The notes below the pieces were generated by a model. The model saw only the letters and a program-made list of their open reading frames with translations. It had not been told where the DNA came from and made no database searches. This document shows positions 2,160 to 32,805 of a stretch of DNA of 35,960 nucleotides, in pieces (position 1 is the stretch's first letter; each line of letters opens with the position of its first letter). This DNA is from a virus. The position numbers and the translations under genes are program-made. Location: positions 1-35,960 of the IMG/VR virus record IMGVR_UViG_3300009648_000002; one strand, 5' to 3'.

Positions 2160-2453
2160 ATGAGAAATGATAAAAATGAGAGATTGTGGAACTTTAAGGA
2201 ATTAACCCACTACCTCGGCTACTCCATAAAAGTCAAACCCACCCTAGAAAAACTCGCTAAAAAGAAATACAGAGTCAGCCTAGCCGTCCTCGAAGAATTC
2301 CAGCCACACTTCACACCCACCACAGGTGGAATGAGCCAGACAACCATCGAAATAGGAATATACAGGACAAGGACAGAGTCAATCAAAAAGATCAAAGAGA
2401 TAATCGACACAATAACCATAGAAGACCTCCTCATAGGAGGGATGAAGCAGTGA
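2160..2453 (+). CDS. Hypothetical protein (97 aa)
   Basis: ORF with an RBS-like sequence; its stop overlaps the GTG start of the next gene. Confidence 0.45.
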   Translation: MRNDKNERLWNFKELTHYLGYSIKVKPTLEKLAKKKYRVSLAVLEEFQPHFTPTTGGMSQTTIEIGIYRTRTESIKKIKEIIDTITIEDLLIGGMKQ

Positions 2454-3214
2454 AAACCATAAGACTCACAACCGACAACCCAGCAGGCTTGCACAGCATA
2501 ACACACATGCTGACACAGATAAACGTCGACATTGCCACCATCCACGCCACACCAGAGGCCCTGACACTCGAAGGCATGGACGGGTCACACATCATCTACT
2601 ACAACATCAGGATCACACCAGACTTCTTCACAGACTACAAAGTCCCAGAGAACGAGGAACTATCAGTCCCAGTCGAAGAACTCAACAACATCCTCAAACT
2701 CACAGGGAGAAACAACACAATCACAATCACCAACCATACAGATGACGAGGAGAACACCACGTCCCTCATCGTCACCAGGTCCACAGAGAGAGACGAAACA
2801 AGGTTCACAATACTCTGCCCTGACATAGAATACGCCACCCCAACAGTCGACATGGGCACATTCGAATTAAATGCGACGATCACAGTCAACACAGACATGA
2901 TCACGTCATTCTTCAAAGACGCGGCCCTCACATCCTCTGACGCGATCGAGATCAAAGTCGATGAAGACTACCTGTACCTCATGACACCTGAGGATTACAA
3001 TGGATTCCATGTCATGTCCCGGCAGGGGCATGGTGAGAAAGTCTATGGGGAGTACTTAAGCCAATTCACGATAGAGAAACTCAAACCACTTATCCTCGAC
3101 GGATTTGAGACCGTTACAATCCACGTGGACAACGAGAAACCAATTAAATTAGAGTACTCAGACATTGGGGTTAGAGCGAACCTTCTCCTGGCCCCACGGA
3201 TCATAGGAGAATAA
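2450..3214 (+). CDS. pcn: DNA polymerase sliding clamp (PCNA) homolog
   Basis: 254 aa, typical PCNA length; C-terminal RANLLLAPRIIGE matches the archaeal PCNA C-terminus (compare P. furiosus ...RLTFLLAPRVEE); GTG start preceded by ggaggg. Confidence 0.7.
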   Translation: MKTIRLTTDNPAGLHSITHMLTQINVDIATIHATPEALTLEGMDGSHIIYYNIRITPDFFTDYKVPENEELSVPVEELNNILKLTGRNNTITITNHTDDEENTTSLIVTRSTERDETRFTILCPDIEYATPTVDMGTFELNATITVNTDMITSFFKDAALTSSDAIEIKVDEDYLYLMTPEDYNGFHVMSRQGHGEKVYGEYLSQFTIEKLKPLILDGFETVTIHVDNEKPIKLEYSDIGVRANLLLAPRIIGE

Positions 3215-3230
3215 AGGGAAGGGATTTGTC

Positions 3231-3800
3231 GTGACAACAGTCCACATCAACACAAACGTGAAACTAAGACGCAGAAACCTTAAAAACGCCGTCCTATACA
3301 TCGTCGATAAATACGGGGATGAGATAGGCCTCTCAAGTGATGGTGTCTGTGAAAAAATCATCGAGGAGGGTCTGATGCACAGTAGATCCTCCCCGACCAG
3401 GAAGATGGTAGCATACACGCTCTCACAACTGAAACGTGAGGGTATGGTGAGGGTGGATAACACTACGAGGGGTCCGAGATTCACCCTGGAACCACACGTC
3501 AATGTTCAAGTCCATCAAAGCCCCGCGCCCAGGACTATCTGGGCGGAATTATACATGGAAACCATCCAAGCCCTCAAAGTCTCTGACGAACCTCTCACAA
3601 CCCATGAACTCTTCGAAGTCGTGACAGATAACGGTGAATACAAGGGATATCATCTCACTGAAGAGGAGTATGTGACGAGGGTCATATCACCCCTCTCCTG
3701 TCAGGGTTATCTTATGGAGATAGATGAACCTGAGAGGTGCGCCAGGTGTTGGGGATACCGTGAGAATGGATTCAAAACAAGCAATGAGAGGATGAGTTGA
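3231..3800 (+). CDS. Putative DNA-binding protein with two winged-helix-like segments
   Basis: Segments such as MVAYTLSQLKREGMVRV resemble wHTH recognition helix plus wing; GTG start. Confidence 0.4.
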   Translation: MTTVHINTNVKLRRRNLKNAVLYIVDKYGDEIGLSSDGVCEKIIEEGLMHSRSSPTRKMVAYTLSQLKREGMVRVDNTTRGPRFTLEPHVNVQVHQSPAPRTIWAELYMETIQALKVSDEPLTTHELFEVVTDNGEYKGYHLTEEEYVTRVISPLSCQGYLMEIDEPERCARCWGYRENGFKTSNERMS

Positions 3801-4393
3801 CGGTGATGCTCATGAAATCTGTTGAATTCGCGTCTAAAGAATGGTGGGAGCTGAACAAGAGAGAGTCAAAGAAGATCGAGGACTCAATAATCAGGCTGAG
3901 GAAGGAGGGGTATAAATACGATGAAATCTCTGATGCTCTTAAAGTAAGCAGACAGCGTGTATGGAGAACCCTGTCAAGGCAGGGTTTAGTCCATAATTCA
4001 AGAGATATGGAGGAGATCAGGGCGAATGTTCACAGGCTCTACACGTTGGGGTACACTATACCTGAAATCGCTGCGACTGTTAAGATCAGTAAGAGGTGTG
4101 TGCGTCAACTTGTCAATAAAATTGAATACCCGTACAGGTGGCGTGTAAACCAGGAAGGGAGATTCATGAAGGTGGGATGGGAGCATCCCCGCCCCTTCAC
4201 CATCTTTGAGCTCCATAAAGCCTACAAGCTACACGTTGAGGAGGGGTGGAGTATCCTGAAGCTCATGAAGATCCTCGGTGGCGGATACATGACTGTCAGG
4301 AGGTACATACAAGCATATGGTGCAGGGGAACTCGATGAGGTCTGGGAGGCCTATGATAGGTATCATCGGGGCGGTGACGGTGTTCCTGGATGA
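3797..4393 (+). CDS. HTH-domain protein, putative transcription regulator
   Basis: Two HTH-like segments (YDEISDALKVSRQRVWRTL and YTIPEIAATVKISKRCVRQLV); start overlaps the upstream stop. Confidence 0.45.
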   Translation: MTVMLMKSVEFASKEWWELNKRESKKIEDSIIRLRKEGYKYDEISDALKVSRQRVWRTLSRQGLVHNSRDMEEIRANVHRLYTLGYTIPEIAATVKISKRCVRQLVNKIEYPYRWRVNQEGRFMKVGWEHPRPFTIFELHKAYKLHVEEGWSILKLMKILGGGYMTVRRYIQAYGAGELDEVWEAYDRYHRGGDGVPG

Positions 4394-4412
4394 TTAGATG
4401 ATTTTTCATCGT

Positions 4413-4435
4413 TATAGACATATATAGCGAAGTAT
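4413..4435 (+). promoter_or_regulatory. Putative archaeal promoter (TATA-like element plus conserved 14-mer atatagcgaagtat)
   Basis: tatagacatatatagcgaagtat is 19/23 identical to the motif at 10741-10763; both lie 10-14 nt upstream of an operon start codon. Confidence 0.4.
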
Positions 4436-4448
4436 GGGGAGTGGATAT

Positions 4449-4772
4449 ATGATATACATAGTTACACGGCATCAGAGCACTGTTAACTGGATTAAGGCTA
4501 AACTGAATGGTAAAGGCCTTGACCGGGACGTCTTCGTCGCAGGGCATCTCAGTGATCAGATGATCCTGCAGATGAAGAAGGGTGATGCTGTCTACGGCAT
4601 CCTCCCCATCCACCTCATCAAGAGGTTGCTCCGTAAGGGTGTGGATTATTATCATATGGTCCTACCCGATGTCCCTGAGGAATTCAGGGGTAAGGAGTTG
4701 AGTCTTGAGCAGGTGAAAGCGTTTGGAGGTCAAATATGGAAAATTAGGGATATTGATTGTGTTGAAGTATAA
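4449..4772 (+). CDS. Small protein (107 aa), possible Csx16/VVA1548-like CRISPR-associated (ring-nuclease-like) protein; identity uncertain
   Basis: Start at ATG 4449, in frame with the track ORF from 4434; motifs IVTRH and GILPIHL recall Csx16-family proteins from memory only. Confidence 0.35.
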   Translation: MIYIVTRHQSTVNWIKAKLNGKGLDRDVFVAGHLSDQMILQMKKGDAVYGILPIHLIKRLLRKGVDYYHMVLPDVPEEFRGKELSLEQVKAFGGQIWKIRDIDCVEV

Positions 4773-4799
4773 AAAAAGAAAAAATAGGTTATAGGTGGC

Positions 4800-4985
4800 T
4801 CACCGATCCCGAGGAATAACCCTCCACCGGCCCAAGACGAGGGCCTTCTGGAGGGCCGTGAATTCCTCGGGAGTGATGTCATACTCCCTGAGGAACTCAT
4901 CAAGGGACATCTTGTCCACTATTTCGTGTCTGTTCAAGGTCATCCCAAGAATATGGGATAACCTGAACCTTTTCTCTGTACTCAT
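4800..4985 (-). CDS. Hypothetical small protein (61 aa)
   Basis: Minus-strand ORF preceded by gaggtgagatag-ATG, the RBS pattern used elsewhere in this genome. Confidence 0.45.
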   Translation of the reverse strand: MSTEKRFRLSHILGMTLNRHEIVDKMSLDEFLREYDITPEEFTALQKALVLGRWRVIPRDR

Positions 4986-5004
4986 CTATCTCACCTCAAT
5001 AAAA

Positions 5005-5148
5005 CTACACTATCCTCTTCACCCTGATCTCGAGGAGGACAGCTTCATCATCCTTCATGCCGAGTGCTTCCCTGACGGCTATGGGGATTGATATCCTCCC
5101 CTGCCTGTCAGGTTTGGCGGTGAAGGTGAACTCAGTCACCTTCACCAC
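5005..5148 (-). CDS. AbrB/SpoVT (MazE-like) swapped-hairpin domain protein, 47 aa; sub-threshold gene absent from the ORF track
   Basis: Minus-frame translation VVKVTEFTFTAKPDRQGRISIPIAVREALGMKDDEAVLLEIRVKRIV fits the AbrB/MazE core pattern (GRISIP...RE.LG...D); GTG start preceded by a GAGG-like RBS; overlaps the 3' end of the acidic-protein gene. Confidence 0.45.
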   Translation of the reverse strand: MVKVTEFTFTAKPDRQGRISIPIAVREALGMKDDEAVLLEIRVKRIV

Positions 5149-5389
5149 CCCTCTCGTCGATGTATTTCATGACGCGGTCGAAGAGTTCCTCTGCGGTCTG
5201 ACCATCCTCATAGCTGAGCCAGTGGATGGCTACTGAGTCTTCGTCGAGTTCCTCTGGGTAGTAGAAGTCCTCAACGAGTTTGAGGGCATCCTCAAAGGCC
5301 ATCTCAGCTTCCTCGTATTCTTCCAGGATTTCATCTTTGAGTTCATTGGCGAGCTGGATGATCTCCAGCTCCTCTTTTGTTCTTTTCAT
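5132..5389 (-). CDS. Highly acidic small protein (85 aa)
   Basis: About one third of residues are D/E; intact ORF in the minus-strand operon. Confidence 0.5.
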   Translation of the reverse strand: MKRTKEELEIIQLANELKDEILEEYEEAEMAFEDALKLVEDFYYPEELDEDSVAIHWLSYEDGQTAEELFDRVMKYIDERGGEGD

Positions 5390-5391
5390 GA

Positions 5392-5973
5392 CTATTCCTC
5401 CCTCCTTTCAAGTTCTTCTTCGAGGAGGTTAATCGCCTCCTCAACATATTCAGGGTCAGCCCATTTAAGCTGACCCCGTGCTTCGAGCCATCCGCATAGC
5501 TTCCTATACTTCCCCAGGGTGGTGAGCCCTGGGGCGTGGATTATTCTGTCGATTTCGTACCTGAGAACCCCACGATAAAAGTCCTCGATGAAGGCTATTA
5601 CGCCTTCATCAACCGGGCCCTCCACCCTGTACAGTGGCACAACCCTCCCAGTGGACTCGACGTAAGCGATAACTGTGAGGGTTTCATCCCTCCTGCGGTA
5701 CAGGTAGAGGCCCTCCCGGATCCATGTCCCGGTCCAGTGCCACCGTTCTACCTCCGCAGCCACAAGTATCCTACCCAGCCCCATGTAGGGCTGGTAAAAA
5801 TCAACATCATCCTCGGCGGCTATGCCTCCGACCCTTACGATCTCCCACCCCTTGGCGTTGGGGTGGGACTCCCCTGTTATGGCCTGGGCGAGTTTCCCGG
5901 GCCGTACGAGGAACTCGTCCCCATTTCTTTTGAGGAGGGCTCTGCGCACACCCTCCATGACGTCAGTTTTCAC
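5392..5973 (-). CDS. Hypothetical protein (193 aa)
   Basis: Minus-strand ORF in the GC-rich cassette, immediately upstream of the acidic-protein gene on the same strand. Confidence 0.5.
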   Translation of the reverse strand: MKTDVMEGVRRALLKRNGDEFLVRPGKLAQAITGESHPNAKGWEIVRVGGIAAEDDVDFYQPYMGLGRILVAAEVERWHWTGTWIREGLYLYRRRDETLTVIAYVESTGRVVPLYRVEGPVDEGVIAFIEDFYRGVLRYEIDRIIHAPGLTTLGKYRKLCGWLEARGQLKWADPEYVEEAINLLEEELERREE

Positions 5974-6438
5974 TTATTCCACCTCCTTGAGGTCTACGTT
6001 GTAGACCTCTCCAGCCCTGACCCTGTCGGCCAGGGCCTCTACCTGGGTCGCTGGGGCGGCGACCCAGAAGTGTTCCTCGTCGCAGAGCCCACAGGACCCT
6101 GCGACGAGGACGACCTGGACCCCTGCCTGGGCCAGGTCGAATGCTATGCGGTAGAGGTCTACCGCATGCTCCTCGAGGAGGTCTTCGTCCTCCTCCTGGA
6201 AGTCTGAGAGGTCCCAGAGGACCTCCCAGAACTCCTCCCCCTGTGGGTGGAGTATTTCTTCCCCACCCACAATGGAGATCTCTTCGAGGATGGGGAAGGG
6301 GTTCTCCCCATCCTGGTTGTATTCGCTGATGGCCCTTAGGGCCTCCACGGTGTCTCCCATGGAGGCCCTGAGAAGGGCCCCATGCGCGATCTCTACTTCC
6401 GCGCATATTTCCACAATTTCTTTTCGCATATTCACCAT
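5974..6438 (-). CDS. Hypothetical protein (154 aa), first gene of the minus-strand operon
   Basis: Minus-strand ORF directly upstream of the 193-aa gene; a TATA-like sequence lies upstream on the minus strand around 6516-6530. Confidence 0.5.
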   Translation of the reverse strand: MVNMRKEIVEICAEVEIAHGALLRASMGDTVEALRAISEYNQDGENPFPILEEISIVGGEEILHPQGEEFWEVLWDLSDFQEEDEDLLEEHAVDLYRIAFDLAQAGVQVVLVAGSCGLCDEEHFWVAAPATQVEALADRVRAGEVYNVDLKEVE

Positions 6439-6702
6439 CTACCTCACCTCATTTTCTTGTGGGGTTCAGGTGTTTTCACCTGTACCCCGTTGAGTGTATT
6501 CTGTTGGAGGGAGTATATAAATGTTTTCCTCCCTCCACCTATACACTCCATGATATACCTTATTCTGGATACTAATATATATACTTTTCTATTCCTCGTT
6601 TACTTTTAATAGCAGAACAAAAAGAGACTAAAACATGAAACTCAGCACAATGTACGCTAAAGCAACAAAAAAAGAACTAAGACCAGGAAAAGAACAAGGA
6701 AC
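6439..6702. promoter_or_regulatory. Divergent AT-rich intergenic region with TATA-like boxes for the leftward and rightward operons
   Basis: AT-rich with tatataaa and aatatatatac elements between oppositely oriented gene blocks. Confidence 0.4.
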
Positions 6703-7257
6703 GTGCTGCATATGCCACGAACAGACAAGGAAGGACACAAAAAAAGATTAGGTCAAACCTTCACAACAACCGACCAGACAAGCAGGGGAGACGTCATCTG
6801 CCCCTACTGCATGACACTCAAAAAAGACAGCAACAAACTCCGCAGGACAATGTGGATCCTCACAGAAGACAAATTCCACCCATTCAAACGCCCAGAACTC
6901 CCACAGATCCTCAAAGAACCACCAGACAAACCATACTACCTCTACCTGACAAGGACGTACAAGAAGATAGGCTGGATAATCATGGACGGCCTCCTGAACC
7001 AACCCAACCAGAAGATCATCAGATTAGCCTGTGACATGGAAACACATACACTAAGCCGTGAATTAGCAGTCCAGACCATAGAATGGATTAACGAGCTCAG
7101 AGAAAAATACAGAATCAGTAAGACGGAGATGAAGACTGGTGATGTGAACCCAGGGAAACTACAGGACATGACCGTCAGGGAAGCCAGGAACCTGAACATC
7201 ACCCTAAACAAATTGAAGGGTAACCCCACATGGGAGTTACTCATAGACATGGCATAA
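6703..7257 (+). CDS. Hypothetical protein (184 aa)
   Basis: ORF following the divergent promoter region. Confidence 0.45.
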   Translation: MLHMPRTDKEGHKKRLGQTFTTTDQTSRGDVICPYCMTLKKDSNKLRRTMWILTEDKFHPFKRPELPQILKEPPDKPYYLYLTRTYKKIGWIIMDGLLNQPNQKIIRLACDMETHTLSRELAVQTIEWINELREKYRISKTEMKTGDVNPGKLQDMTVREARNLNITLNKLKGNPTWELLIDMA

Positions 7258-7278
7258 TATTAGAGAGGTGAAAAAGGG

Positions 7279-7410
7279 ATGACCCAAAAGAAGAACCCGG
7301 CACCCATCCTCGTCAGGATAGGGGTATGGGTGACCATGATCTGCCTGGGAATAGTACTATTCTTCGTAGTCCTGGGCCTAATATCCGCAATACTTGGAGG
7401 AGGCGTATAG
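7279..7410 (+). CDS. Small hydrophobic (single transmembrane) protein, 43 aa; absent from the ORF track
   Basis: ATG preceded by gaggtgaaaaaggg; translation MTQKKNPAPILVRIGVWVTMICLGIVLFFVVLGLISAILGGGV; fills the gap between flanking genes exactly. Confidence 0.4.
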   Translation: MTQKKNPAPILVRIGVWVTMICLGIVLFFVVLGLISAILGGGV

Positions 7411-7411
7411 G

Positions 7412-7759
7412 ATGACTGATGAGAAGACTGAAAACGCCCTCGCAAAGTGCCTTGCGATGACGTATAGGAACATTGAATGGAAGAAAGTTGGTGTGAAATC
7501 AGCGTACACATACTTCACAGACCGTGTGCGCGCAGCAAGCCGCATGAGCACCATCACATCCTTCCTAGAAGAACTAAACAGGATGTGCGGTGTCAGCTTC
7601 ACCCAGCACAGCCTCAAAGACATAAACACACTCAAAGAGAACGAAGACGAAGCCCTGAACCTACTCAGACATGAGACAAACTACGCAGTCCTACTCGCCC
7701 TGGAAGTTGTTGAGAAACTCAAAATGAAGAAAGCAGAGGATGAAGGTGATGAAGTATGA
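7412..7759 (+). CDS. Small alpha-helical protein (115 aa) immediately upstream of the RAMP gene
   Basis: ATG 7412 preceded by ggaggagg; stop overlaps the RAMP start (ATGA). Confidence 0.45.
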   Translation: MTDEKTENALAKCLAMTYRNIEWKKVGVKSAYTYFTDRVRAASRMSTITSFLEELNRMCGVSFTQHSLKDINTLKENEDEALNLLRHETNYAVLLALEVVEKLKMKKAEDEGDEV

Positions 7760-8601
7760 GGACTGTTAAGTACCCTGGAGTGTTAACTGCCCGGACACCT
7801 ATCCATCACGGCGGCCCTGAAGTCTATGGGACGATAAAACCCATACTCACACTCCCCACACTCATAGAGGATGAGAAGGGGATGAGGGTTGAGGACGTCC
7901 CCTACATCCATGGGAATGCGATCAGGGGGTACCTCCGCCGCCTGGTCATGCAGGACTTCCTGGATCAACTCGATTATGACCTCAAATCAGCGAAGATCTA
8001 CCATTTTCTCTTCACAGGGGGCCTCCTGGAGGCTAACACAAAATCCTCTGGTATGATTGACGTGAAACTCAAATCAGGGATCCGCAAGTACATCCCACCA
8101 GCAAGTCTCTGGGGTTCTGCCCTGGGCAATCAGATGATCCAGGGCAAATTGAAGGTGGACCTTGCAGAACCGATCTGCAAGGAACTTTACTGGCAGCAGA
8201 AACAGTACTGTGACATCGATGGCCCTTCAAGTTATTCCCTGAAGGCGAGGGACTTCGGGACCCGCCTTGATAGTCTCAGGGAGTACAAGGAGGACAGAGA
8301 GGATGGAGAGCAGGCGACGCAGATGAAGTACGAGTTCGAAGTCATCGTGAAGGGTGCGAAGTTCTATCATGAATTCACACTCACAGACACTGACCCTGTT
8401 GAGGAATCATGTTTCATCCGGGCATTGAACCTGTGGAGCGAACGCCCCTACCTCGGGGGGAAGAGCGGTTCAGGGTACGGGAAACTGGATATCCGCTATG
8501 ACTATGACCCTGATGCTGAGGCAACATACCTCTCGTATGTCGAGGAGAAGGCTGACCTGATCAGAGAGTTTCTTGATGAATTACAGGCAAACTGGCGATG
8601 A
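7756..8601 (+). CDS. RAMP-superfamily protein, Cas7-like (type III Csm3/Cmr4/Cmr6-like)
   Basis: Three RAMP hallmarks in canonical order: N-terminal TPIHHGG, central VPYIHGNAIRGYLRR (compare PYIPGSSLKG.LR) and a C-terminal glycine-rich loop YLGGKSGSGYGKL; 281 aa. Confidence 0.55.
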   Translation: MRTVKYPGVLTARTPIHHGGPEVYGTIKPILTLPTLIEDEKGMRVEDVPYIHGNAIRGYLRRLVMQDFLDQLDYDLKSAKIYHFLFTGGLLEANTKSSGMIDVKLKSGIRKYIPPASLWGSALGNQMIQGKLKVDLAEPICKELYWQQKQYCDIDGPSSYSLKARDFGTRLDSLREYKEDREDGEQATQMKYEFEVIVKGAKFYHEFTLTDTDPVEESCFIRALNLWSERPYLGGKSGSGYGKLDIRYDYDPDAEATYLSYVEEKADLIREFLDELQANWR

Positions 8602-9251
8602 TCATGTCTCTTGCTGCCAGGATCCAGGATAAAATCAGCGCCTACCTGAGACGATCTAAACACAGAGTAAAAAAACCACTCCACAAGGCCGACTCGAAGA
8701 CAATACAGGAAGTCTTTGACAGAATCCCTTTCTACACCCTTGCAAGGCACTGGGATGCCTATCACAACCCAGACAGATACACTACAAAAACCCTCTCCCG
8801 GCAGGTGAAGGTACCATACCACACACTCTATAATTGGATCACACGCAAATGCTCCACGAGGGTGGGCTGGTTCTGGAAGGGCTGGATCGTCATAGGGAAC
8901 ACAAAGGACCCCAGGAAACCAGCAATATTCAAGACAAAGACAACAGAAGAGATACTTGAAGATCTGCACACCAACTACATTGAATTACAACCACTCACAA
9001 GCAGGAAGGACTTTGAGGGATGCATAAGGAATTACCTGGAATGTAATGGGCCATCCACAGCCTTAGAACTCTACGAGGAGGTCGTGCTAAACAATTATAA
9101 CGCTAAATTCTCAAAGTCAAGGTACATGAAACGCAACGCATTCACCGCAATCATACGTGGCGTGGATGGCGTGGTGAAGGTAGGGACCAAAAAGGCGAAG
9201 GGCTATAACATGCCAGTCTATGCAGTTGATGAAGGATGTGTAGCAAAATGA
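8598..9251 (+). CDS. Hypothetical protein (217 aa), translationally coupled to the RAMP gene
   Basis: Start overlaps the RAMP stop; weak glycine-containing C-terminal segment; otherwise unrecognised. Confidence 0.45.
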   Translation: MIMSLAARIQDKISAYLRRSKHRVKKPLHKADSKTIQEVFDRIPFYTLARHWDAYHNPDRYTTKTLSRQVKVPYHTLYNWITRKCSTRVGWFWKGWIVIGNTKDPRKPAIFKTKTTEEILEDLHTNYIELQPLTSRKDFEGCIRNYLECNGPSTALELYEEVVLNNYNAKFSKSRYMKRNAFTAIIRGVDGVVKVGTKKAKGYNMPVYAVDEGCVAK

Positions 9252-9658
9252 AGGAAGATAGAGCGAACTCAAAGAACTCAAAGCTAACTGTAGAGTGGAA
9301 CTCAAAGAACTCCGCTAAGGAAGGTGTTAGGTCCTGGAGACTATCACAGTACCGCCGATTCCTTGAATCCGATGCCAAGACAAGCCTCCCTGTCACGAGT
9401 CATGACATCGAGGAAGTGATGTGGATCGTGGAGAGGCTGAAACTCTCAGACCTCCACCGGAGGGCTTCATGGGAGCAGGTGCTCCTTGCACTCACAGTCT
9501 TCATCCTGGAGTCCCGGCTCCCCTACACCATCCGCTTTGAGGATTATCGTATCCTCAAAGAGTATGGGGTGGATGTGGGTCTATACGCGGCGGTCCTGAG
9601 GAACCTCCTCAAGATTTACCGTATGAATATGCCTATACAGGCCTCCTTATCCCGGTAG
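9236..9658 (+). CDS. Hypothetical protein (140 aa)
   Basis: ORF overlapping the end of the previous gene; contains an internal short repeat gaactcaaagaactc x2 at 9265-9312. Confidence 0.4.
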   Translation: MCSKMKEDRANSKNSKLTVEWNSKNSAKEGVRSWRLSQYRRFLESDAKTSLPVTSHDIEEVMWIVERLKLSDLHRRASWEQVLLALTVFILESRLPYTIRFEDYRILKEYGVDVGLYAAVLRNLLKIYRMNMPIQASLSR

Positions 9659-9727
9659 TGGGTGTGTCCCTTGACTGTGTTACGTTATATAGTGAGAGGG
9701 GACTATTCAAGTCCCCTGGTGAAGGTT

Positions 9728-9877
9728 ATGTCTCCTTGTCCACAATGCGGGTCCCAGAGGAGGGATTATGTCCCTGAGGATGGGTACATGGTCTGCAAGG
9801 ACTGTGGCCTTGTCCTCGCCGCTGTGTATCCATACACTGCTGGGTTGAGAATGGATCTACCTGAGGGCCTCCTCTGA
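9728..9877 (+). CDS. Stand-alone TFIIB/TFB-type zinc-ribbon mini-protein (49 aa)
   Basis: MSPCPQCGSQRRDYVPEDGYMVCKDCGLVL matches the TFB N-terminal zinc-ribbon pattern CPxCG-x15-VCxxCGLV; ATG 9728 is in frame within track ORF 9662-9877. Confidence 0.5.
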   Translation: MSPCPQCGSQRRDYVPEDGYMVCKDCGLVLAAVYPYTAGLRMDLPEGLL

Positions 9878-9894
9878 TTCTGTTGGGGTGAGAT

Positions 9895-10173
9895 ATGGTG
9901 AGTGATGATATCCTGGAACATTTAGATGCCTTCAACTCCGCACTCATCGATTTTATGGATCGTTTTGAGTGGGTTGAGCGTGACGCTGTGGAGGTCTGCG
10001 ACATACTCAACTTTGGGGCCCTCATTGTCGGAGTGGCCGTCTGTTTCATCCCTGATGAGTGGGGTGGTGTCTGCATCTACATTGATGAGGATGCTGTTGA
10101 GTACCTCCCACTGATACTCGAGGTCTTCATGAAGAACTATGTGAACTGGGGTCTCAGGGAGCCGCTGATCTAA
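9895..10173 (+). CDS. Hypothetical protein (92 aa)
   Basis: ORF preceded by ggggtgagatatg RBS/start context. Confidence 0.4.
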   Translation: MVSDDILEHLDAFNSALIDFMDRFEWVERDAVEVCDILNFGALIVGVAVCFIPDEWGGVCIYIDEDAVEYLPLILEVFMKNYVNWGLREPLI

Positions 10174-10189
10174 TATTGGGGTGAGATAT

Positions 10190-10408
10190 ATGGGTGTTGA
10201 TCATGGAAAGCTGAGTACATACGTTGTTGGTGTTGTGGTCCTTGTCTATGGGTATCTTCTGAGTAATCCGGCCCTGATTGAGGCCTTCATGGCTAAAATG
10301 GGCCTTGCAGGATATAGTCCGCTTGTGCTCTCGATACTTGCATTCACATATGACTATTTCTTCCCCAGAGAGGAATCCTCAGACATTGGGGGCCAGGATG
10401 AGGCCTGA
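10190..10408 (+). CDS. Small membrane protein with two predicted transmembrane helices
   Basis: ATG 10190 after ggggtgagatat; two hydrophobic stretches (VVGVVVLVYGYLL and SPLVLSILAF). Confidence 0.4.
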   Translation: MGVDHGKLSTYVVGVVVLVYGYLLSNPALIEAFMAKMGLAGYSPLVLSILAFTYDYFFPREESSDIGGQDEA

Positions 10409-10424
10409 TTAAGGGTGGTGATGA

Positions 10425-10733
10425 GTGGGAGCGCATCAAATCCAATGCGATGACATTAAGAACCTTACCAGGGACCTTGCTGAGATTAGGGCAGTCCTCA
10501 GGGAGAAGAATGTTATGAATGGCTTCACAAGGGAGCGTATTGAGGATCTTGAGAAGACTGATGATGAGATCTATGATCGTCTCGATGGACTCCATGATGC
10601 CATTGTCAGTCTCCGTGAGGAGGTCTATGGCCTTAATGTGACTCTTAAATTGTTCTATCGGATAAACGTCGCTGTTATAATCTCTGTTTTCACTACTCTC
10701 GCGGTTTATGGGTTTGAGGTTATCCTGCTTTGA
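10425..10733 (+). CDS. Coiled-coil protein with C-terminal transmembrane anchor
   Basis: Charged helical N-terminus and hydrophobic C-terminus (VAVIISVFTTLAVYGFEVILL); GTG start. Confidence 0.4.
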   Translation: MGAHQIQCDDIKNLTRDLAEIRAVLREKNVMNGFTRERIEDLEKTDDEIYDRLDGLHDAIVSLREEVYGLNVTLKLFYRINVAVIISVFTTLAVYGFEVILL

Positions 10734-10740
10734 ACTTCAT

Positions 10741-10763
10741 TATAGTGTAATATAGCGAAGTAT
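10741..10763 (+). promoter_or_regulatory. Putative promoter, second copy of the conserved motif, upstream of the packaging/morphogenesis operon
   Basis: tatagtgtaatatagcgaagtat, 10 nt upstream of the terminase small subunit start. Confidence 0.4.
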
Positions 10764-10769
10764 ACTGGT

Positions 10770-11294
10770 GTGATGATGAAGGGTGAGGAAGAGAAGCACA
10801 GGGAAGCATACGACCATTACCTCGCCCACATTGAGGCAGGATACACAAAGACGGCGAGCGTCAAAGAAACAGCCAGAAGGATAGGGGTCTCCGAGGCAAC
10901 AGTCTGGAACTGGAAGAGACGCTTCCACTGGGATGAGAAACAGGCGATAGACAGCTACGAGATCAAAGAGACGTTCAAGGAAAGGAATCATGAGATCATC
11001 ATAGACTTCAAGACCAAATACCTCGCATTCCTCAATGACCTCATCGACCAGGCGATAGAGGAATTCCGTGAGGGCCGGGGCGTCGTCATGATACGTGATG
11101 TTGGGGACCTGGAACGAGTGATTAAAGTTGCCCTCCTCCTCCAGGGCGAGGCAACAAGCAGGACTGAGAGCAGCGTCCTGCAAGTGAACCGTGAAAAGAT
11201 AGAAGATTATGAGGAATACTTCAGAGAATTAGAGGAGGAATTTGGGGCGGGGGACGCTGAGGATGAGAATCAAGGTGCGGAGGGGATTTACTGA
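10770..11294 (+). CDS. terS: Putative terminase small subunit (HTH DNA-binding)
   Basis: HTH-like RIGVSEATVWNWKRR; position immediately upstream of and overlapping the large terminase gene. Confidence 0.5.
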   Translation: MMMKGEEEKHREAYDHYLAHIEAGYTKTASVKETARRIGVSEATVWNWKRRFHWDEKQAIDSYEIKETFKERNHEIIIDFKTKYLAFLNDLIDQAIEEFREGRGVVMIRDVGDLERVIKVALLLQGEATSRTESSVLQVNREKIEDYEEYFRELEEEFGAGDAEDENQGAEGIY

Positions 11295-12618
11295 TGCGGA
11301 GAAAGACTTCCTCACTGAGACAGTCCTTAAAAACCCTTACATTCCACATAAACCATTCCTTAAGCAGGCGATATTCCTCACCAGACTCGACAGGGAACTG
11401 CTCTATGGTGGTCAGGCGGGGGGTGGGAAATCTGACGCTCTCCTCATGGCAGCCCTCCAATATGTCATGTACCCGGATTATCATGCACTCTTACTTAGGA
11501 GGACTTACAAGGAATTAGCCCTTCCAGGTGCCCTTATGGATCGTGCGGATGAATGGTTAACACCTACAGATGCTGAGTGGGTCGCGGAGAACAAGACATG
11601 GGAATTCCCATCAGGAGCAACCCTCACCTTCGGTTACCTTGAGCATGAGCGGGATAAACACCGATACCAGTCCTCAGAGTTCCAGTTCATAGGCTTTGAT
11701 GAGCTCACAGAGTTCCAAGAGTCACAGTACACATTCCTATTCAGTAGGAACAGGAAGACAGAGGACAACCCCGTCCCCTTGAGGACAAGGGCTGCGACGA
11801 ACCCTGGAGGCGTGGGCCATGAATGGGTGAAAAGACGATTCATTGAAGGCCCAGCACCATTCCTTCCATCCAGTTACACTGAAAACCCTTACCTTGACGC
11901 ATCATATGAGGAAAGCCTTGATCTCCTCGACCCGATCACCCGACGCCAACTTAAATATGGTGATTGGTCCGCGACGATAGAGGGGAGGATCTTCACTGAG
12001 GATATCCTTGATTACTATGATGAGCCGCCGACACCAGAACAGACACGTCTTGCAGTCAGGTACTGGGACCTTGCAGCCACACCTGACAGGAATGATGACT
12101 CAATAAGTGGCGGTGCGGATTGGACGGTCGGGGCCCTCCTACTCCTTGACGACTCCGGAGGCCTCTACCTTGAGGATATCATCCGATTCAGGCTTTCACC
12201 CGCGGAGGCTGAGGATATGATCATTCAAACGATCCGTAACGACTTTCAAGTTTATAGGGAGAAATACATGGCGCGGGCTGAACTGGAGGGAGGAGCCTCT
12301 GCAAGGTATGTGATGGAATCCCTCCGCAGACGCCTGGCTGGGGTGAACTTTGACGGATCCCCTGTCCAGGGTAAAAGTAAACTAGATAGGGCCAGAGCGT
12401 TGATCCCAGCATTCAGGACATCCCAGTTAAGGCTTAAGAGGGATGCTCCATGGCTCTACACATTCACGAGGGAACTCCTCGCATTCCCATCAACTGGTGT
12501 TCATGATGACCAGGTCGACGCCCTCAGCGGGGCCTACCTCCAGGTCGCTGACTTAACATCAGGGGATCCGTATGGGGCTTCAGGTAGGCGGTATAAAGGT
12601 TATGGGGTGACATATTGA
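11242..12618 (+). CDS. terL: Terminase large subunit
   Basis: Walker A-like LYGGQAGGGKSDALL near the N-terminus; C-terminal nuclease-type motif HDDQVDAL; followed by portal; start may be ATG 11263. Confidence 0.7.
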   Translation: MGRGTLRMRIKVRRGFTDAEKDFLTETVLKNPYIPHKPFLKQAIFLTRLDRELLYGGQAGGGKSDALLMAALQYVMYPDYHALLLRRTYKELALPGALMDRADEWLTPTDAEWVAENKTWEFPSGATLTFGYLEHERDKHRYQSSEFQFIGFDELTEFQESQYTFLFSRNRKTEDNPVPLRTRAATNPGGVGHEWVKRRFIEGPAPFLPSSYTENPYLDASYEESLDLLDPITRRQLKYGDWSATIEGRIFTEDILDYYDEPPTPEQTRLAVRYWDLAATPDRNDDSISGGADWTVGALLLLDDSGGLYLEDIIRFRLSPAEAEDMIIQTIRNDFQVYREKYMARAELEGGASARYVMESLRRRLAGVNFDGSPVQGKSKLDRARALIPAFRTSQLRLKRDAPWLYTFTRELLAFPSTGVHDDQVDALSGAYLQVADLTSGDPYGASGRRYKGYGVTY

Positions 12619-13979
12619 GTTTCATTGAGAGGATAAAATCTATTATCGGGTCTGTGACCAGCAGGGGCTCAAGGGACGCCCCATTACGTGTTAGAGGGTA
12701 CCGTAGGGAGAGGCCCCGACAGGTAGGCTCGGATCTGACTCTTGAACAGATAAAGTATGTGATGAGGGACACCCAGGTAGAGACAGCATACCACCTCTTC
12801 GAGAGCTTCCTCCTATCCAGGCAGATGACCCTCAAAAAGAATCGTCGTGAAGATCGTGGGGATATGGGAGGGGATGTTGAGTCATTCGTTTCAGACATCT
12901 ATGAGAGACTCATCGGATTTGAGAGAAGATTACGCCGTGACATCTACACCGCCATCCTCTACGGCTTCAGCGCCCATGAAATCATCTACACGACGAAGGA
13001 GATAAATGGGAGGATCCTCCTCACCATCGATGACCTGATACCCATCCACCCAGAGACGGTCTACTATGATGATTCATTCATCTTCGATGAGGATACAGGG
13101 GAGTTCCTGGGGTTAAAACAGAACATCCCATACCATCGTCAGGATGAAGAGGATGTCCCTGAGTACATCCCACGGGAGAAACTCCTCTTCTTCAGCTTCA
13201 AATCACATTTCAATGATCCTCGTGGGCGGAGCATCCTTGCAGGGATCTATGACAACGTCCAATTCAAAGAGGACGCGATGCGATGGCTCCTCATATTCTT
13301 GCAGAAACATGAGAACCCCACCCTCGTTGGGAAGGTCTCCAACCCCGCGAATAAGGAAGGCCTCCTGAGGAGTTTGGAGATGATTGATGAGGGCCTCACG
13401 AAGATTACTGTGGGTAAGGATGACAGTGTCGAGCTTGTTGAATCATCAAAGAATGGTGACGCCTTCTTTGAGTTTATCAAGTACAATGATAACGTTATAC
13501 TCCGCCAGTTCCTTATAGGCACCCTCCTGCTCGGTCAATCCGACAAGGCGAGCGGCAGTTATGCGCAGGCCATGACCCAAGAGTCTGTTCTCAGGACAGC
13601 CCTGGAGGGTATACATAAGGACATCGCCGGATCCATTAATGAAGTTATCCTCCGCCTTGTTGAGTACAATTTCGGTGAGGATGCTGTTAAATCTGCTCCG
13701 CTTATAGAGTTTGAGACGTTCACTGATAGACACACGATTGAATTGCTGCAAGCCCTTCAGGGCTATGCGACCGGCCTCCTGATTGACACTGATTCAGAGT
13801 GGTTCAAGAAGCTCATCGAGTACAGTATACAGGACGCTACCGGTGAATCAATCCCATTATCCCCTGAGACCCGCGTAGCACCGGTGAATGACCTGGAGGA
13901 CCTCCCACCTGGCGAGTTACCGGAGATGGAATCACGTCTTGACGATCTACTGAGGCACGTGCAAGGCTCTGGCAGGTGA
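12615..13979 (+). CDS. Portal protein
   Basis: 454-aa protein directly after terL with overlapping start/stop; size and position typical of portal. Confidence 0.6.
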   Translation: MSFIERIKSIIGSVTSRGSRDAPLRVRGYRRERPRQVGSDLTLEQIKYVMRDTQVETAYHLFESFLLSRQMTLKKNRREDRGDMGGDVESFVSDIYERLIGFERRLRRDIYTAILYGFSAHEIIYTTKEINGRILLTIDDLIPIHPETVYYDDSFIFDEDTGEFLGLKQNIPYHRQDEEDVPEYIPREKLLFFSFKSHFNDPRGRSILAGIYDNVQFKEDAMRWLLIFLQKHENPTLVGKVSNPANKEGLLRSLEMIDEGLTKITVGKDDSVELVESSKNGDAFFEFIKYNDNVILRQFLIGTLLLGQSDKASGSYAQAMTQESVLRTALEGIHKDIAGSINEVILRLVEYNFGEDAVKSAPLIEFETFTDRHTIELLQALQGYATGLLIDTDSEWFKKLIEYSIQDATGESIPLSPETRVAPVNDLEDLPPGELPEMESRLDDLLRHVQGSGR

Positions 13980-14710
13980 AAAGCAGGATGGTGAGACGAG
14001 AACTGCTGCATGTCCGTGCAGTGACCGGAGACATGGAGAAAAAACTTAAAAAGGCCTTCAAGGCTGCTGCTGAACGATGGGAGAAAGAATTGAGGAGCTG
14101 CGAAACCGAGGATGAATTCATAGAGAAAGTGTTCAACAAGGCCGTTAACCCAATCTACTCAGTTAAAGGCATTGAAGAAGTTATCAGCGGCGTTGGGAGG
14201 GCCTTCACAGCATATGACATGCCACTCGGTCTGAGGAAGGAGCTCTTCAATGAAGTCCTCAAATCTGATATTTCAGGGTACATGGCGAAGGTGAACCGGG
14301 AGGTTGGCGATGACATCCTCAAGCATATGTCAAGGATGGTCTCTGAGAAGAAACCTTACACTGAGATGATGACAGAACTGCCACGCCGCTACGAATCCCT
14401 CTCCACCTTCAGATCAAGGACTATCGTGAGGACAGAGATGCTCCGAGGAGGGAACATGGTCGAATACCAGCGAGGCCTTGCAGACCCCGCGAACCAGTAC
14501 TACCGCGTCATAAGCCATCCTAACTGCTGCCCAGACTGCGCAGAACTCTACGGGTACGGTGAATCATTCTTCAGAGCCGATGAAGTGGATAAACTCCCAC
14601 CACTCCACCCTAACTGCAGGTGCGTAGTGGACTGGCCAAGTGTCTTCGACCTGCCACCAGAACTCCAGGCGGAGGTCCTTGGCACTGTAAGAGGTGATAC
14701 TATTGTCTGA
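13976..14710 (+). CDS. Head morphogenesis protein, Mu F / SPP1 gp7-like
   Basis: Conserved C-terminal HPNCRC motif (LPPLHPNCRCVVDW) characteristic of the Phage_Mu_F family; follows portal. Confidence 0.65.
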   Translation: MKSRMVRRELLHVRAVTGDMEKKLKKAFKAAAERWEKELRSCETEDEFIEKVFNKAVNPIYSVKGIEEVISGVGRAFTAYDMPLGLRKELFNEVLKSDISGYMAKVNREVGDDILKHMSRMVSEKKPYTEMMTELPRRYESLSTFRSRTIVRTEMLRGGNMVEYQRGLADPANQYYRVISHPNCCPDCAELYGYGESFFRADEVDKLPPLHPNCRCVVDWPSVFDLPPELQAEVLGTVRGDTIV

Positions 14711-15746
14711 AGACGTTAAAGACGAAGAAAGAGTCGAGGAAGAGACACGGGAGCCACAGAGGATGAAAGTTGATGCTGTGATGTGGTCCCCCGGGGTCAT
14801 ATACCCATTCCTGGATGGAACACCAGGGAAAGTCTACGCTGACAAGGAACTCGCAGATGAAGTGTACGAGAAGATACTTGCAAGGGTCCAGGACGGAGGC
14901 CTCCCCATCACCATAGACCACCTGGACCAGGACGACCTGGAGATACTCAAGGAACTCGGGTACGGCGTGGTTGGAAGGGTTACAGGGGTTGAACTCCGCA
15001 ATGGACGAGTACACGCAACAGAGATAACATTTGACGGAGAGGCCATCCCACAACTCCTCAAAGATGGCCTCATGAGGGCCTTCAGTATAGAAGCAGAGGT
15101 TGAAACCGAACCCGTAGAGGATGGGTACCGCATCATAGGCTTCAGGGACGTGACAGGTGTGAGCATAGTGAAAAAACCAGCCTGCCCATCCTGCCTCGTC
15201 TACCGCATCAATGCGTACACATCAAATGATAAGCTGAGAATCCAGATGAAGTTCACACCAGGAGGTGAAACCATGAAGAAAGAGGAGGAATTAACCGGAT
15301 CCACGGTAAAGGCTCAGGAAGAAGTTCCTGAGGAAGATGAAGGAGTTGGGGGCGCTGTAGATGTGCTCCCGGAGCTGATAGATCGCCTCAATGAGGTTAT
15401 AAATGGACTCAGAGGATTGATTGAGGAAATCCAGAACCTTCAACCAATCGATGAAGGGGAAGAAGGAGAGCAACTCACTGAGGGCCTTGCAGATGAGCTT
15501 AAAGAGAAAGCAGCGACGATCAACGCTAAGAAACTCGTTGAGAAATACATTGAGGAAGGTAAAGTGAAACCCGCGGAGACAGAGGCCCACATCAAACTTG
15601 CGATGAAAGCCCCAGCTGAGTACTCTAAGATCATGGATGAAGCACCCCAGGTCATTGAGATGTCAAGGATGTCCAGGAACCCGGCTGATATGAAGGAGAA
15701 AGAGTTCTACACGTATGAAGAATACCGTAAAAGATTCCACAGGTGA
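14694..15746 (+). CDS. Putative capsid scaffolding protein (possibly with prohead protease domain); start may be ATG 14763
   Basis: Position between MuF-like and capsid genes; acidic coiled-coil C-terminal half. Confidence 0.4.
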   Translation: MILLSEDVKDEERVEEETREPQRMKVDAVMWSPGVIYPFLDGTPGKVYADKELADEVYEKILARVQDGGLPITIDHLDQDDLEILKELGYGVVGRVTGVELRNGRVHATEITFDGEAIPQLLKDGLMRAFSIEAEVETEPVEDGYRIIGFRDVTGVSIVKKPACPSCLVYRINAYTSNDKLRIQMKFTPGGETMKKEEELTGSTVKAQEEVPEEDEGVGGAVDVLPELIDRLNEVINGLRGLIEEIQNLQPIDEGEEGEQLTEGLADELKEKAATINAKKLVEKYIEEGKVKPAETEAHIKLAMKAPAEYSKIMDEAPQVIEMSRMSRNPADMKEKEFYTYEEYRKRFHR

Positions 15747-16252
15747 TAAGGATGGTTGTGAAATACAATTATGGTGAAATAGGCCCCGGGGTTGCCATGG
15801 AGCTCAAAGAGGGGAACCTAACAGTCTCAGAGATCAGCACGCCACATGGTACGCAGGTAGGCGCCACATTCCAGTACCCTGCTAAGAAAGGGGATATAGT
15901 GGCCCTTGCAGGAGACCTCCTCGTTGAAAAACTAAGGAGTGGAGTGACAGGGAAACCTATAGGCGTCATTGAGGACGAACCACAATTCCAGGGCCAACCA
16001 CCATCATCCAACGCTACCTACGGGAACTACCCGAACAGGATCGCAGCGGTCAAACTATTCGGTGTTGCTGTGAGGGAAATGGAACTCACGTCATCAAACG
16101 CGGCGATCACTGCAGGGGACTACATCAAAGTCGCCTCTGATGGGCAGACTATAGACAAGTCAACTGACCCTACTGATAAGATAGCCCTTAAATCAGCATC
16201 CGCCAATAGTGGCGCTGAGATACCAGTCCTCGTAGGCTACTACTACAAATAA
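15743..16252 (+). CDS. Hypothetical head protein (169 aa)
   Basis: Position in the head module; overlapping start. Confidence 0.4.
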   Translation: MIRMVVKYNYGEIGPGVAMELKEGNLTVSEISTPHGTQVGATFQYPAKKGDIVALAGDLLVEKLRSGVTGKPIGVIEDEPQFQGQPPSSNATYGNYPNRIAAVKLFGVAVREMELTSSNAAITAGDYIKVASDGQTIDKSTDPTDKIALKSASANSGAEIPVLVGYYYK

Positions 16253-32070: not shown

Positions 32071-32805
32071 ATGATGAAGAAGGAGTACAGGTTAGATGAA
32101 TTCCTGGATATGAAGCGTCGCTGGGAGGCCTTCAGAATCCAGAAGGGCAGAAAACCTAACTACGTGACTGATAAGGCGGGTGAAAAGATCCCAAGAGACG
32201 TGTTTAATGATATGCTACTAAGATATGAACGCTTCGTTGCACTCAACCATAGAGATCCAGCCCTCATCAAAGTGAAGGGTAATACTGCTGATGACGGGTG
32301 GGTTACCACTGGGTATTTCCAGCAGGACTATCAGGACACGGATCACACCTGCGGCCCCAGCAGCCTCCAGATGGCTCTCTCTGCCCTTGAGTGCAAGATA
32401 TCGGAGTCGGAGTTAACAAAGGCGGCTGGGACAACATTGAAGGGAACAGACCATAAAGGTATGTTGAAGGCTATCACTTATGCAGCGAATAAGTGTAAAA
32501 AGAAACTTAAAGCCGAATTTAAAAAATTCAAGGCAATAGGATGGGATTCGATCATTAAACACGTTGAGGGTGGCGGGGAAGTCATAATACACCTTGTCAC
32601 CCGGCCAGGCCTTGACACGGATGTGAATGGTCGAGTGGTCTGGCGTGGAGCATTCGGTCACTATGTCTACCTCGTCGGCGTGAACAGGAAGAAGGGAGTG
32701 GTGAGGATAGCTGACCCAACGAAGGGGATTCGAGAGTTCACTCAAGGACAAGTAGTTCAGGCGATAAATAACCTGTCACAACCCAGCATACTCCTAATAA
32801 AGTAG
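32071..32805 (+). CDS. Papain-like (C39-like) cysteine peptidase, candidate cell-wall peptidase/lysin
   Basis: Q...DHTCGPSSLQMALSAL (Gln, then Cys in a CG.xSL context) with downstream GHYVYLVG...RIADPTKG (His, Asp), as in the peptidase C39 arrangement. Confidence 0.5.
   Translation: MMKKEYRLDEFLDMKRRWEAFRIQKGRKPNYVTDKAGEKIPRDVFNDMLLRYERFVALNHRDPALIKVKGNTADDGWVTTGYFQQDYQDTDHTCGPSSLQMALSALECKISESELTKAAGTTLKGTDHKGMLKAITYAANKCKKKLKAEFKKFKAIGWDSIIKHVEGGGEVIIHLVTRPGLDTDVNGRVVWRGAFGHYVYLVGVNRKKGVVRIADPTKGIREFTQGQVVQAINNLSQPSILLIK

Follow-up and report, generated by a model that had tools for sequence, protein, structure and literature searches.

A probable remnant of a type IV-B CRISPR–Cas cassette in a psiM2-like tailed virus

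[quoted passage not shown] The subtype is established on plasmids, prophages and some phages (PMC7038947). In the complex from Mycobacterium, a Csf2 filament is intertwined with Cas11 on heterogeneous RNA of 55–60 nucleotides (nt); Csf1 and Csf3 were not resolved in that structure and CRISPR RNAs (crRNAs) were not enriched (PMC7937560). Neutralization of host crRNAs and a cysH-linked modification of nucleic acids have been proposed as roles (PMC7038947), and the papers on the Bathyarchaeia ‘Fuxiviridae’ (PMC10848311) and on a Methanoperedens virus (bioRxiv 10.1101/2023.08.02.551345) read the type IV-B genes of those viruses as possible counter-defence. Here we examine csf2 and its neighbours in the IMG/VR record IMGVR_UViG_3300009648_000002 (positions 1 to 35,960; this whole stretch of 35,960 nt is the window). 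We read csf2, with a probability of about 0.85, as encoding the Cas7 backbone subunit of an array-less type IV-B cassette, a viral accessory module that was recently crippled in this genome.

The Csf2 protein of 281 amino acids (aa) has three RAMP motifs in order, TPIHHGG (residues 14–20), VPYIHGNAIRGYLRR (48–62) and YLGGKSGSGYGKL (232–244), which fall in those columns where a 33-member alignment of the family is best conserved; the glycine-rich loop GGKSGSGYG contains invariant residues. The Pfam family RAMPs (PF03787) is matched above its cut-off (E = 4.4e-8, 34.3 bits, cut-off 22.1), and the PADLOC model typeIV_Cas7 Csf2_0_IV aligns over residues 1–280 with 231 bits (E = 7.7e-69), compared with 37 bits for the best PADLOC Csm3 model (1.4e-9) and 13 bits for PADLOC Cmr4 (0.018); PADLOC models carry no curated cut-off. 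These scores put the RAMP assignment well outside the range of chance. An AlphaFold2 model built from a 33-sequence alignment (predicted local distance difference test score (pLDDT) 79, predicted template modelling score (pTM) 0.78) matches Cas7-family chains in Foldseek at probability 1.0. Chains of type IV-A Csf2 come first (8rc3, 7xg1; E = 3e-12, template modelling score about 0.6), followed by type IV-B Csf2 (7jhy, 3.5e-9) and then Csm3 (6o7e, 6e-9). In a search of Protein Data Bank (PDB) sequences with the family profile, 7jhy Csf2 scored 2.8e-10 and Csm3 chains 1e-4 to 3e-7. Profiles and predicted fold together thus place the protein among the RAMP/Cas7 proteins of type IV (Csf2), not of type III. 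An earlier note, made from the letters of the window, had described an orphan type III-like Cas7-family protein; the family membership is borne out by the Pfam match and the fold, whereas the type III label does not hold against the far higher score of the Csf2 model and the ranking of Csf2 folds above Csm3. Membership in type III was considered and rejected: the Csm3, Cmr4, Cmr6 and Cmr1 models match weakly, and no Cas10 was found in the locus.

A Csm3-type catalytic acidic residue may be missing from Csf2. Among 33 homologues no Asp or Glu is invariant within residues 15–54, the best-kept acidic positions being E22 (30/33) and E46 (29/33), and StCsm3 D33 falls opposite the near-invariant L31 in a weak hidden Markov model (HMM) alignment that, like the one to 7JHY Csf2, does not reliably cover this loop; the evidence leans towards absence. 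Separately, the closest PDB sequence relative of the family is a chain named ‘Cas7c’ (11fs, also 11hc and 11hd; 5e-24, nearly full length), nearer by profile than the Csf2 of 7JHY.

A database search returned 176 Csf2 homologues, most of them 51–58% identical; the named ones carry Methanobrevibacter, Methanobacterium or Methanothermobacter labels, except one labelled Synergistaceae. We fetched 30 related loci from metagenome-assembled genomes (MAGs) of Methanobacteriaceae, Methanobacterium and Methanobrevibacter, IMG/VR viral contigs and metagenomes (locus labels with L are ours). Csf1, Csf2, Csf3 and a CysH-like gene are present in all 30, and Cas11 is detectable in 29; compared with these loci, the genome of the window alone lacks Csf3 and CysH. 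On 22 contigs that we read, the encoded Csf2 is exactly that of the window, and the siblings L004–L008 and the IMG/VR viral contig L023, which encode it, have a full series of genes after csf2: a 249-aa Csf3/Cas5 (PADLOC typeIV_Cas5, 1.1e-46), a 216-aa N6/N4 DNA methyltransferase, a 235-aa PAPS-reductase/CysH-like protein (Pfam, 9.4e-16), a 61-aa open reading frame (ORF) and a 271-aa protein. The order of the intact cassette is csf1, 43-aa ORF, cas11, csf2, csf3, DNA methyltransferase and cysH-like gene, and it contains neither an array nor genes for adaptation, a helicase or a nuclease.

Relative to these siblings the window lacks 2,480 bp (L004 positions 8410–10889), and the junction lies in a 4-bp TACC microhomology at 8643–8646. 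Missing with this segment are csf3 from codon 17 onwards, the methyltransferase, the cysH-like gene, the 61-aa ORF and the first 67 codons of the 271-aa gene, including the region of a weak ribbon-helix-helix match at the N terminus of that protein. What follows csf2 is a 217-aa ORF in which Csf3 residues 1–16 (MIMSLAARIQDKISAY) run in frame into residues 68–271 of the 271-aa protein; this exact chimera is found on 6 contigs of 20–50 kb. In each of the 30 other related loci csf2 is followed by csf3, which makes the state of the window the derived one: a deletion here and not an insertion elsewhere.

The second lesion is in csf1. Intact sibling Csf1 has 207 aa (PADLOC, 4.3e-29) and starts at an ATG equivalent to position 6635 of the window, where a 1-bp deletion after about position 6729, outside any homopolymer run, stops the first frame after 38 codons (MKLSTMYAKATKKELRPGKEQGTCCICHEQTRKDTKKD, ending …GTCCICHEQTRKDTKKD). 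The 3′ ORF encodes 184 aa from GTG 6703 or 181 aa from ATG 6712, and the exact 181-aa product occurs on 7 contigs of 20–50 kb. In a 16-member alignment a first Cys pair, C(C)xC, is kept in 15–16 of 16 Csf1 proteins and a second, CxxC, in 16 of 16. The 5′ fragment holds the first pair and the 3′ ORF the second without the first, so that the conserved four-Cys motif, a putative metal-binding site, is broken; csf1 is split here and probably a pseudogene. Since both lesions are found on 6–7 contigs, they are features of a lineage and not one-off assembly errors.

Two small proteins stand between the damaged csf1 and csf2. The product of the gene directly 5′ of csf2, which overlaps csf2, matches the PADLOC typeIV_Cas11 model over profile positions 5–112 of 114, and a single-sequence AlphaFold2 model of it is all-helical, with 5 helices (pLDDT 71). 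Upstream of cas11 lies the 43-aa hydrophobic ORF; small ORFs are also seen inside the cassettes of other lineages (63 aa in L011, 54 aa in L015).

Both lesions are very recent, because the cassette DNA is nearly identical to that of the intact siblings. Across its 846 nt csf2 has 0 differences from L004–L006 and 1 from L023; the 43-aa ORF has none from the intact siblings, cas11 has 5 synonymous and 0 non-synonymous differences, and csf1 after the frameshift has 4–5 synonymous and 3 non-synonymous differences. The large terminase gene is 88–89% identical to those of the siblings (proportion of synonymous differences, pS, about 0.4). When positions 2400–16000 are compared with L004 and L023, 400-nt windows alternate between 99–100% and 74–90% identity; the cassette (6800–9200) lies inside a near-identical block, whereas identity falls to about 88% in the terminase and portal genes. 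This pattern indicates that the sibling viruses are finely mosaic, with frequent recombination among co-circulating viruses, and that the cassette belongs to a recently shared block. The ratio of non-synonymous to synonymous change (dN/dS) is uninformative on ongoing selection, the csf2 DNA being identical to that of three intact siblings. A further observation concerns the 95 nt of csf1 before the indel (6635–6729), which contain 12 differences from the siblings, compared with 8/528 after it (Fisher P = 4e-6), 3/195 in the intergenic region upstream of csf1 and 0/846 in csf2; this excess may mark a short tract of recombination that stops at the indel.

Tandem Repeats Finder, a direct-repeat search and a custom scan (repeats of at least 20 nt spaced 45–110 bp apart, applied to the window and to all related loci) detected no CRISPR array or mini-array in the window, and a Methanothermobacter-type CRISPR repeat, used as a query, gave no match there. 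Positions 1–123 recur exactly at 35838–35960 as a 123-bp terminal direct repeat, and the window is a circular permutation of NCBI contig JAKOPW010000170.1 (GCA_029778645.1), identical to it over the compared stretches. The window is a complete circular assembly of a genome of ~35.8 kb (about 35,837 bp), and the absence of an array therefore covers the whole virus genome. There are no tRNAs in the window and no Rfam matches. Pfam and PADLOC searches that covered the early region, the surroundings of the cassette and a number of late ORFs found no DinG/RecD helicase, Cas10-like HD subunit or adaptation genes, and the precomputed Pfam matches of the called genes of the sibling contigs include no helicase, Cas10-like HD or adaptation domains. 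No hidden helicase or nuclease partner was found among the early-region, lysis-region and other large ORFs scanned; one 653-aa protein of the replication region has no detectable domains. Among the ORFs scanned, a csx16 gene is the only cas or defence gene outside the cassette.

The Csx16 (Cas_VVA1548) protein is matched over its full length (Pfam PF09652, 4.1e-29, 101 bits, cut-off 25; PADLOC, 4.9e-34). Its gene lies 2.5 kb upstream in the window; in L011–L013, whose Csf2 carries a Methanothermobacter label, it lies a few hundred bases upstream of the cassette. Csx16 has been shown by experiment to be a ring nuclease specific for cyclic tetra-adenylate (cA4) and is present in 2 of 28,114 phage genomes (PMC12409355). 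Judged by this homology, the viral enzyme probably degrades the second messenger through which type III CRISPR systems of the host signal and would thus act against type III immunity.

The large terminase gene shares 68% DNA identity with that of psiM100 over a 273-nt stretch (protein 50% identical), homologues of psiM100 ORF6 and ORF16 are present, and a lysin (32071–32805, + strand) joins a C39-like cysteine peptidase domain to a pseudomurein-binding repeat (Pfam 20.4 bits, below the cut-off of 24.9). These genes point to a psiM2-like (Methanobavirales-like) tailed virus infecting a pseudomurein-walled methanogen of the Methanobacteriales. The N terminus of the lysin is 52% identical to psiM100 PeiW, and small and large terminase, Mu-like portal and Mu-F genes are present, as is a gene for PCNA. 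The genomes of psiM2 and psiM100 yielded no Csf2 match, and the cassette is therefore an accessory module. The hosts of the intact and truncated variants, which are psiM2-like viruses, are likely to be Methanothermobacter or close relatives, which are cultivable.

Coordinates of the cassette and its surroundings are collected in Table 1. The four ORFs that the earlier note had grouped in a translationally coupled operon are all present, as are the three RAMP motifs; successive genes overlap in ATGA at 7756–7759, 8598–8601 and 9248–9251. The cas11 gene encodes 115 aa from its ATG in a reading frame open from TTG 7394, and the suggestion that this small helical protein could be a Cas11-like small subunit agrees with its PADLOC match; the viral setting and the lack of an array were likewise confirmed, the latter across the circular genome. 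Two other descriptions need revision. Csf2 is not solitary: the cassette begins further upstream, with csf1 and the 43-aa ORF, so that a frameshifted csf1 and cas11 flank the gene on one side and 16 csf3 codons remain on the other, with Csx16 nearby. And of the two downstream proteins listed as unknown, one is the chimera of Csf3 and the 271-aa protein (8598–9251, 217 aa) and the other (9236/9248–9658, 140/136 aa) is 44–46% identical to psiM100 ORF6 and its psiM2 counterpart and matches phrog_30657. In psiM100, ORF6 likewise precedes the terminase genes; by these matches the last gene is a virus backbone gene and no Cas partner.

Table 1. Features of the type IV-B-like locus in the window
Feature	Position	Strand	Basis or remark
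Putative promoter/operator	6492..6548		Nested inverted repeat around TATA-like box
csf1 5′ fragment, 38 codons	6635..6751	+	First conserved Cys pair; base comparison with intact siblings
csf1 3′ ORF (type IV Cas8-like large subunit)	6703..7257	+	PADLOC typeIV_Cas8 Csf1_0_IV 3.2e-22
43-aa hydrophobic ORF, one predicted membrane helix	7279..7410	+	ORF list; DNA identical in all close siblings
cas11, type IV small subunit, 115 aa, intact	7412..7759	+	PADLOC typeIV_Cas11 1.1e-23
csf2, type IV Cas7 RAMP backbone subunit, 281 aa, intact	7756..8601	+	PADLOC, Pfam, fold
csf3 remnant (type IV Cas5), codons 1–16, MIMSLAARIQDKISAY	8598..8645	+	Identical to start of L004 249-aa Csf3
Deletion junction, TACC microhomology	8643..8646		Base-level alignment with siblings
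Residues 68–271 of sibling 271-aa protein, fused to csf3 start	8646..9251	+	Base-level alignment
psiM2/psiM100 ORF6 homologue (phrog_30657)	9248..9658	+	Backbone gene 3′ of cassette, outside it
Csx16 ring nuclease gene	4434..4772	+	Pfam PF09652, PADLOC Csx16

Two further features flank the cassette. Upstream of csf1, the DNA that separates it from a divergent gene on the minus strand contains, at 6492–6548, the nested inverted repeat GAGTGTAT...TGGAGGGAG-TATATAAATGTTTTC-CTCCCTCCA...ATACACTC, with perfect 8-nt and 9-nt repeat arms around a TATA-like box (TATATAAA); this may be the archaeal promoter or operator of the cassette. On the other side, 9662–9877 (+ strand) encodes a 71-aa TFIIB-type zinc-ribbon protein (Pfam Zn_Ribbon_TF, 2.7e-7; Rrn7 zinc finger, 2e-7), which may be a mimic or competitor of host TFB.

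The wider family adds variation around the same core. No array lies within about 8 kb of the cassette in any of the 30 related loci (0/30), and in 6 of them (L014, at 10753–11466; L020, L024, L028, L029 and L034) a cas6 gene stands beside the cysH-like gene; these cas6 genes have Pfam Cas6_I-A and Cas_Cas6_C matches. Cas6 is rare in type IV-B, with 12 instances in a 2019 survey (PMC7038947). Its presence without an array is unusual for the subtype and hints at processing of host precursor crRNA. In L015/L016, L022, L025 and L027, csf3 is followed by a 430-aa PAPS-reductase+DUF3440 protein and a second gene of the PAPS-reductase family; these lineages include a Methanobrevibacter MAG contig, and L015/L016 add an acetyltransferase and a ParB_N gene between the two. 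This arrangement may resemble pairs of the IbrA/IbrB type. The cassette is also present in L017 (JAQVJW010000022, a ‘Patescibacteria’ MAG) and L018 (JBFXIQ010000101, a ‘Synergistaceae’ MAG), with a Csf2 58% identical to that of the window; both are probably mis-binned viral contigs. Together the related loci make type IV-B a recurrent accessory module of Methanobacteriales tailed viruses. Our literature search returned no report of type IV-B in such viruses, and an earlier mention in the methanogen-virus compendium (Nat Microbiol 2023) is possible.

In our reading, a microhomology-mediated deletion of 2,480 bp took away the methyltransferase, cysH and all of csf3 from its codon 17 on, and a 1-bp deletion split csf1 between its Cys pairs, leaving cas11 and csf2 as the intact genes of the cassette. 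In intact relatives, Csf2 would polymerize on RNA with a minor filament of Cas11, as in the Mycobacterium complex, and this filament would act together with the CysH-like enzyme. The role would be non-adaptive, with counter-defence or competition between mobile elements most plausible, given the ring nuclease nearby and the Cas6 genes of other lineages; both Csx16 in this lineage and Cas6 without an array in others point towards an interplay with host CRISPR systems. Interference with host CRISPR, which the earlier note had also raised, is a hypothesis already published for type IV-B. The cassette of the window would most likely be non-functional, or at most form an RNA-coating filament of Cas11 and Csf2, in a virus that is viable without the rest. 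We put loss of function at somewhat better than even odds; residual RNA coating by Cas11 and Csf2 is the main alternative, and a considerably less probable one.

Several points weigh against this interpretation. The NCBIfam Csf2 model TIGR03115 matches at 2e-14 and 53.6 bits, below its trusted cut-off of 130. The Cas11 model has no significant structural match in the PDB, and the assignment of Cas11 therefore rests on the HMM match and on gene position. The own cysH of the window was lost in the deletion, and subtype IV-B is therefore assigned to this locus by descent from the siblings. The contigs that share the lesions may come from related samples or be re-assemblies of the same data, and an intact cas11 and an unchanged csf2 fit continued selection as well as they fit a very recent deletion. 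The mechanism of the viral cassette is, moreover, one that we infer throughout.

If selection has retained the surviving pair, cas11 and csf2 could form a streamlined module, kept because a two-protein RNA-coating filament is useful alone, perhaps by soaking up host crRNAs or small RNAs of other kinds. Csf2 and Cas11, on heterogeneous RNA, were all that the type IV-B structure showed; the two genes are intact and translationally coupled and differ from those of the siblings at synonymous sites only, and the deletion variant forms a complete circular genome and recurs on several contigs. Yet Csf1, Csf3 and CysH are kept in 30 of 30 other loci, so selection maintains the full set, and a csf2 identical in DNA to that of three intact siblings and one base from that of a fourth has had no time to decay; the frameshift and the scar-like chimera also resemble decay and not design. 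We regard streamlining as a doubtful proposition, though one to be taken seriously. Its stronger form, in which Cas11–Csf2 is a self-sufficient, selected RNA-coating sponge working with Csx16 against host type III immunity, seems to us unlikely; if true, it would make this lineage a natural experiment showing that type IV-B can do without Csf1, Csf3 and CysH in its core activity. A guide-dependent activity is conceivable for the intact relatives, which would borrow host crRNAs for use against competing viruses or the host, an ability that the variant of the window would have lost. The six viral loci with Cas6 beside the cysH-like gene and no array close by speak for such borrowing, as does the mini-array reported in the Fuxivirus type IV-B locus (PMC10848311). 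We nevertheless consider it improbable: the Mycobacterium complex shows no crRNA enrichment even with a co-resident array and Cas6 (PMC7937560), across host genomes the presence of type IV-B is negatively correlated with that of other CRISPR systems (PMC7038947), and Cas6 is missing from the window and from its closest siblings.

It is very unlikely that the protein is a solitary type III-like Cas7 which poisons the Csm or Cmr complexes of the host or inserts itself into them. Csm3 chains do appear among the fold matches of Csf2 (E about 1e-8) and the viral Csx16 implies pressure from host type III signalling, but the protein belongs to type IV by its sequence and by its fold, neither a partner of the Cas10, Csm or Cmr kind nor any sign of subunit mimicry was found, and the locus brings a Cas11 and, in its ancestral state, a Csf1 and a Csf3 of its own, which argues that Csf2 builds its own complex. 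We give slightly less credence still to the deletion and frameshift being assembly or sequencing artefacts in a virus whose cassette is really intact. The data are metagenomic assemblies, and intact variants with identical csf2 exist in public data; however, a 4-bp microhomology is too short to mislead an assembler, the fusion is clean and in frame, 6 contigs carry the exact chimera and 7 the exact truncated Csf1, each of these contigs being 20–50 kb long, and the indel lies outside a homopolymer. A recently crippled type IV-B cassette remains the reading that we prefer, and the nearly isogenic intact and truncated variants in public data, together with their probably cultivable hosts, would make a direct comparison of the cassettes feasible in a natural virus–host pair.

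Compared with described systems, the intact siblings are most readily set beside the type IV-B locus of Mycobacterium sp. JS623 (7JHY; PMC7937560), with which they share csf1, cas11, csf2, csf3 and an adjacent cysH-like gene, and likewise the lack of an array, of Cas1, Cas2 and Cas4 and of DinG. They differ in that the carrier is an archaeal tailed virus and not an actinobacterial plasmid, in the length of Csf2 (281 aa versus 300) and in two additions, the 43-aa membrane ORF between csf1 and cas11 and the methyltransferase between csf3 and cysH; the copy of the window, for its part, has lost csf3 and cysH to the deletion and carries a frameshift in csf1. A type IV-B module with a cysH-like gene on an archaeal tailed virus is also what the Bathyarchaeia ‘Fuxiviridae’ (PMC10848311) and the Methanoperedens virus (bioRxiv 10.1101/2023.08.02.551345) have in common with this locus, whereas here the host lineage is Methanobacteriales, Csx16 co-occurs and the copy is truncated; unlike the Fuxivirus, the locus has no mini-array. 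Among cultured phages, Skermania phage SPI1 (KR011061; L001 2840–5772) has the same order of csf1, cas11, csf2 and csf3 in orf40–43 (PADLOC 2e-28, 6e-15, 1e-66 and 2e-36, all annotated as hypothetical), although it is an actinobacterial phage and its Csf2 is 25% identical to that of the window.

Similarity extends to other types at the level of fold. The Csf2 proteins of type IV-A (Pseudomonas oleovorans, Klebsiella pneumoniae and others; 8RC3, 8RC2, 7XG1) are the best structural matches to the Csf2 model, but type IV-A has DinG, Cas6/Csf5 and an array and is without Cas11, none of which applies to the locus of the window. With Csm3 and Cmr4 of type III, Csf2 shares the RAMP fold, related to the RNA recognition motif (RRM), and its glycine-rich loop, and the double filament of Csf2 and Cas11 resembles the Csm backbone; unlike type III, the locus has no Cas10, and the NCBIfam models of Csm3 (1.2e-6, 28.7 bits, cut-off 90) and Cmr4 (0.068) match below their cut-offs. 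Set against these systems, the locus offers no new mechanism: the system is of a kind already known, the virus group that carries it is new, and this genome has a leftover of it.

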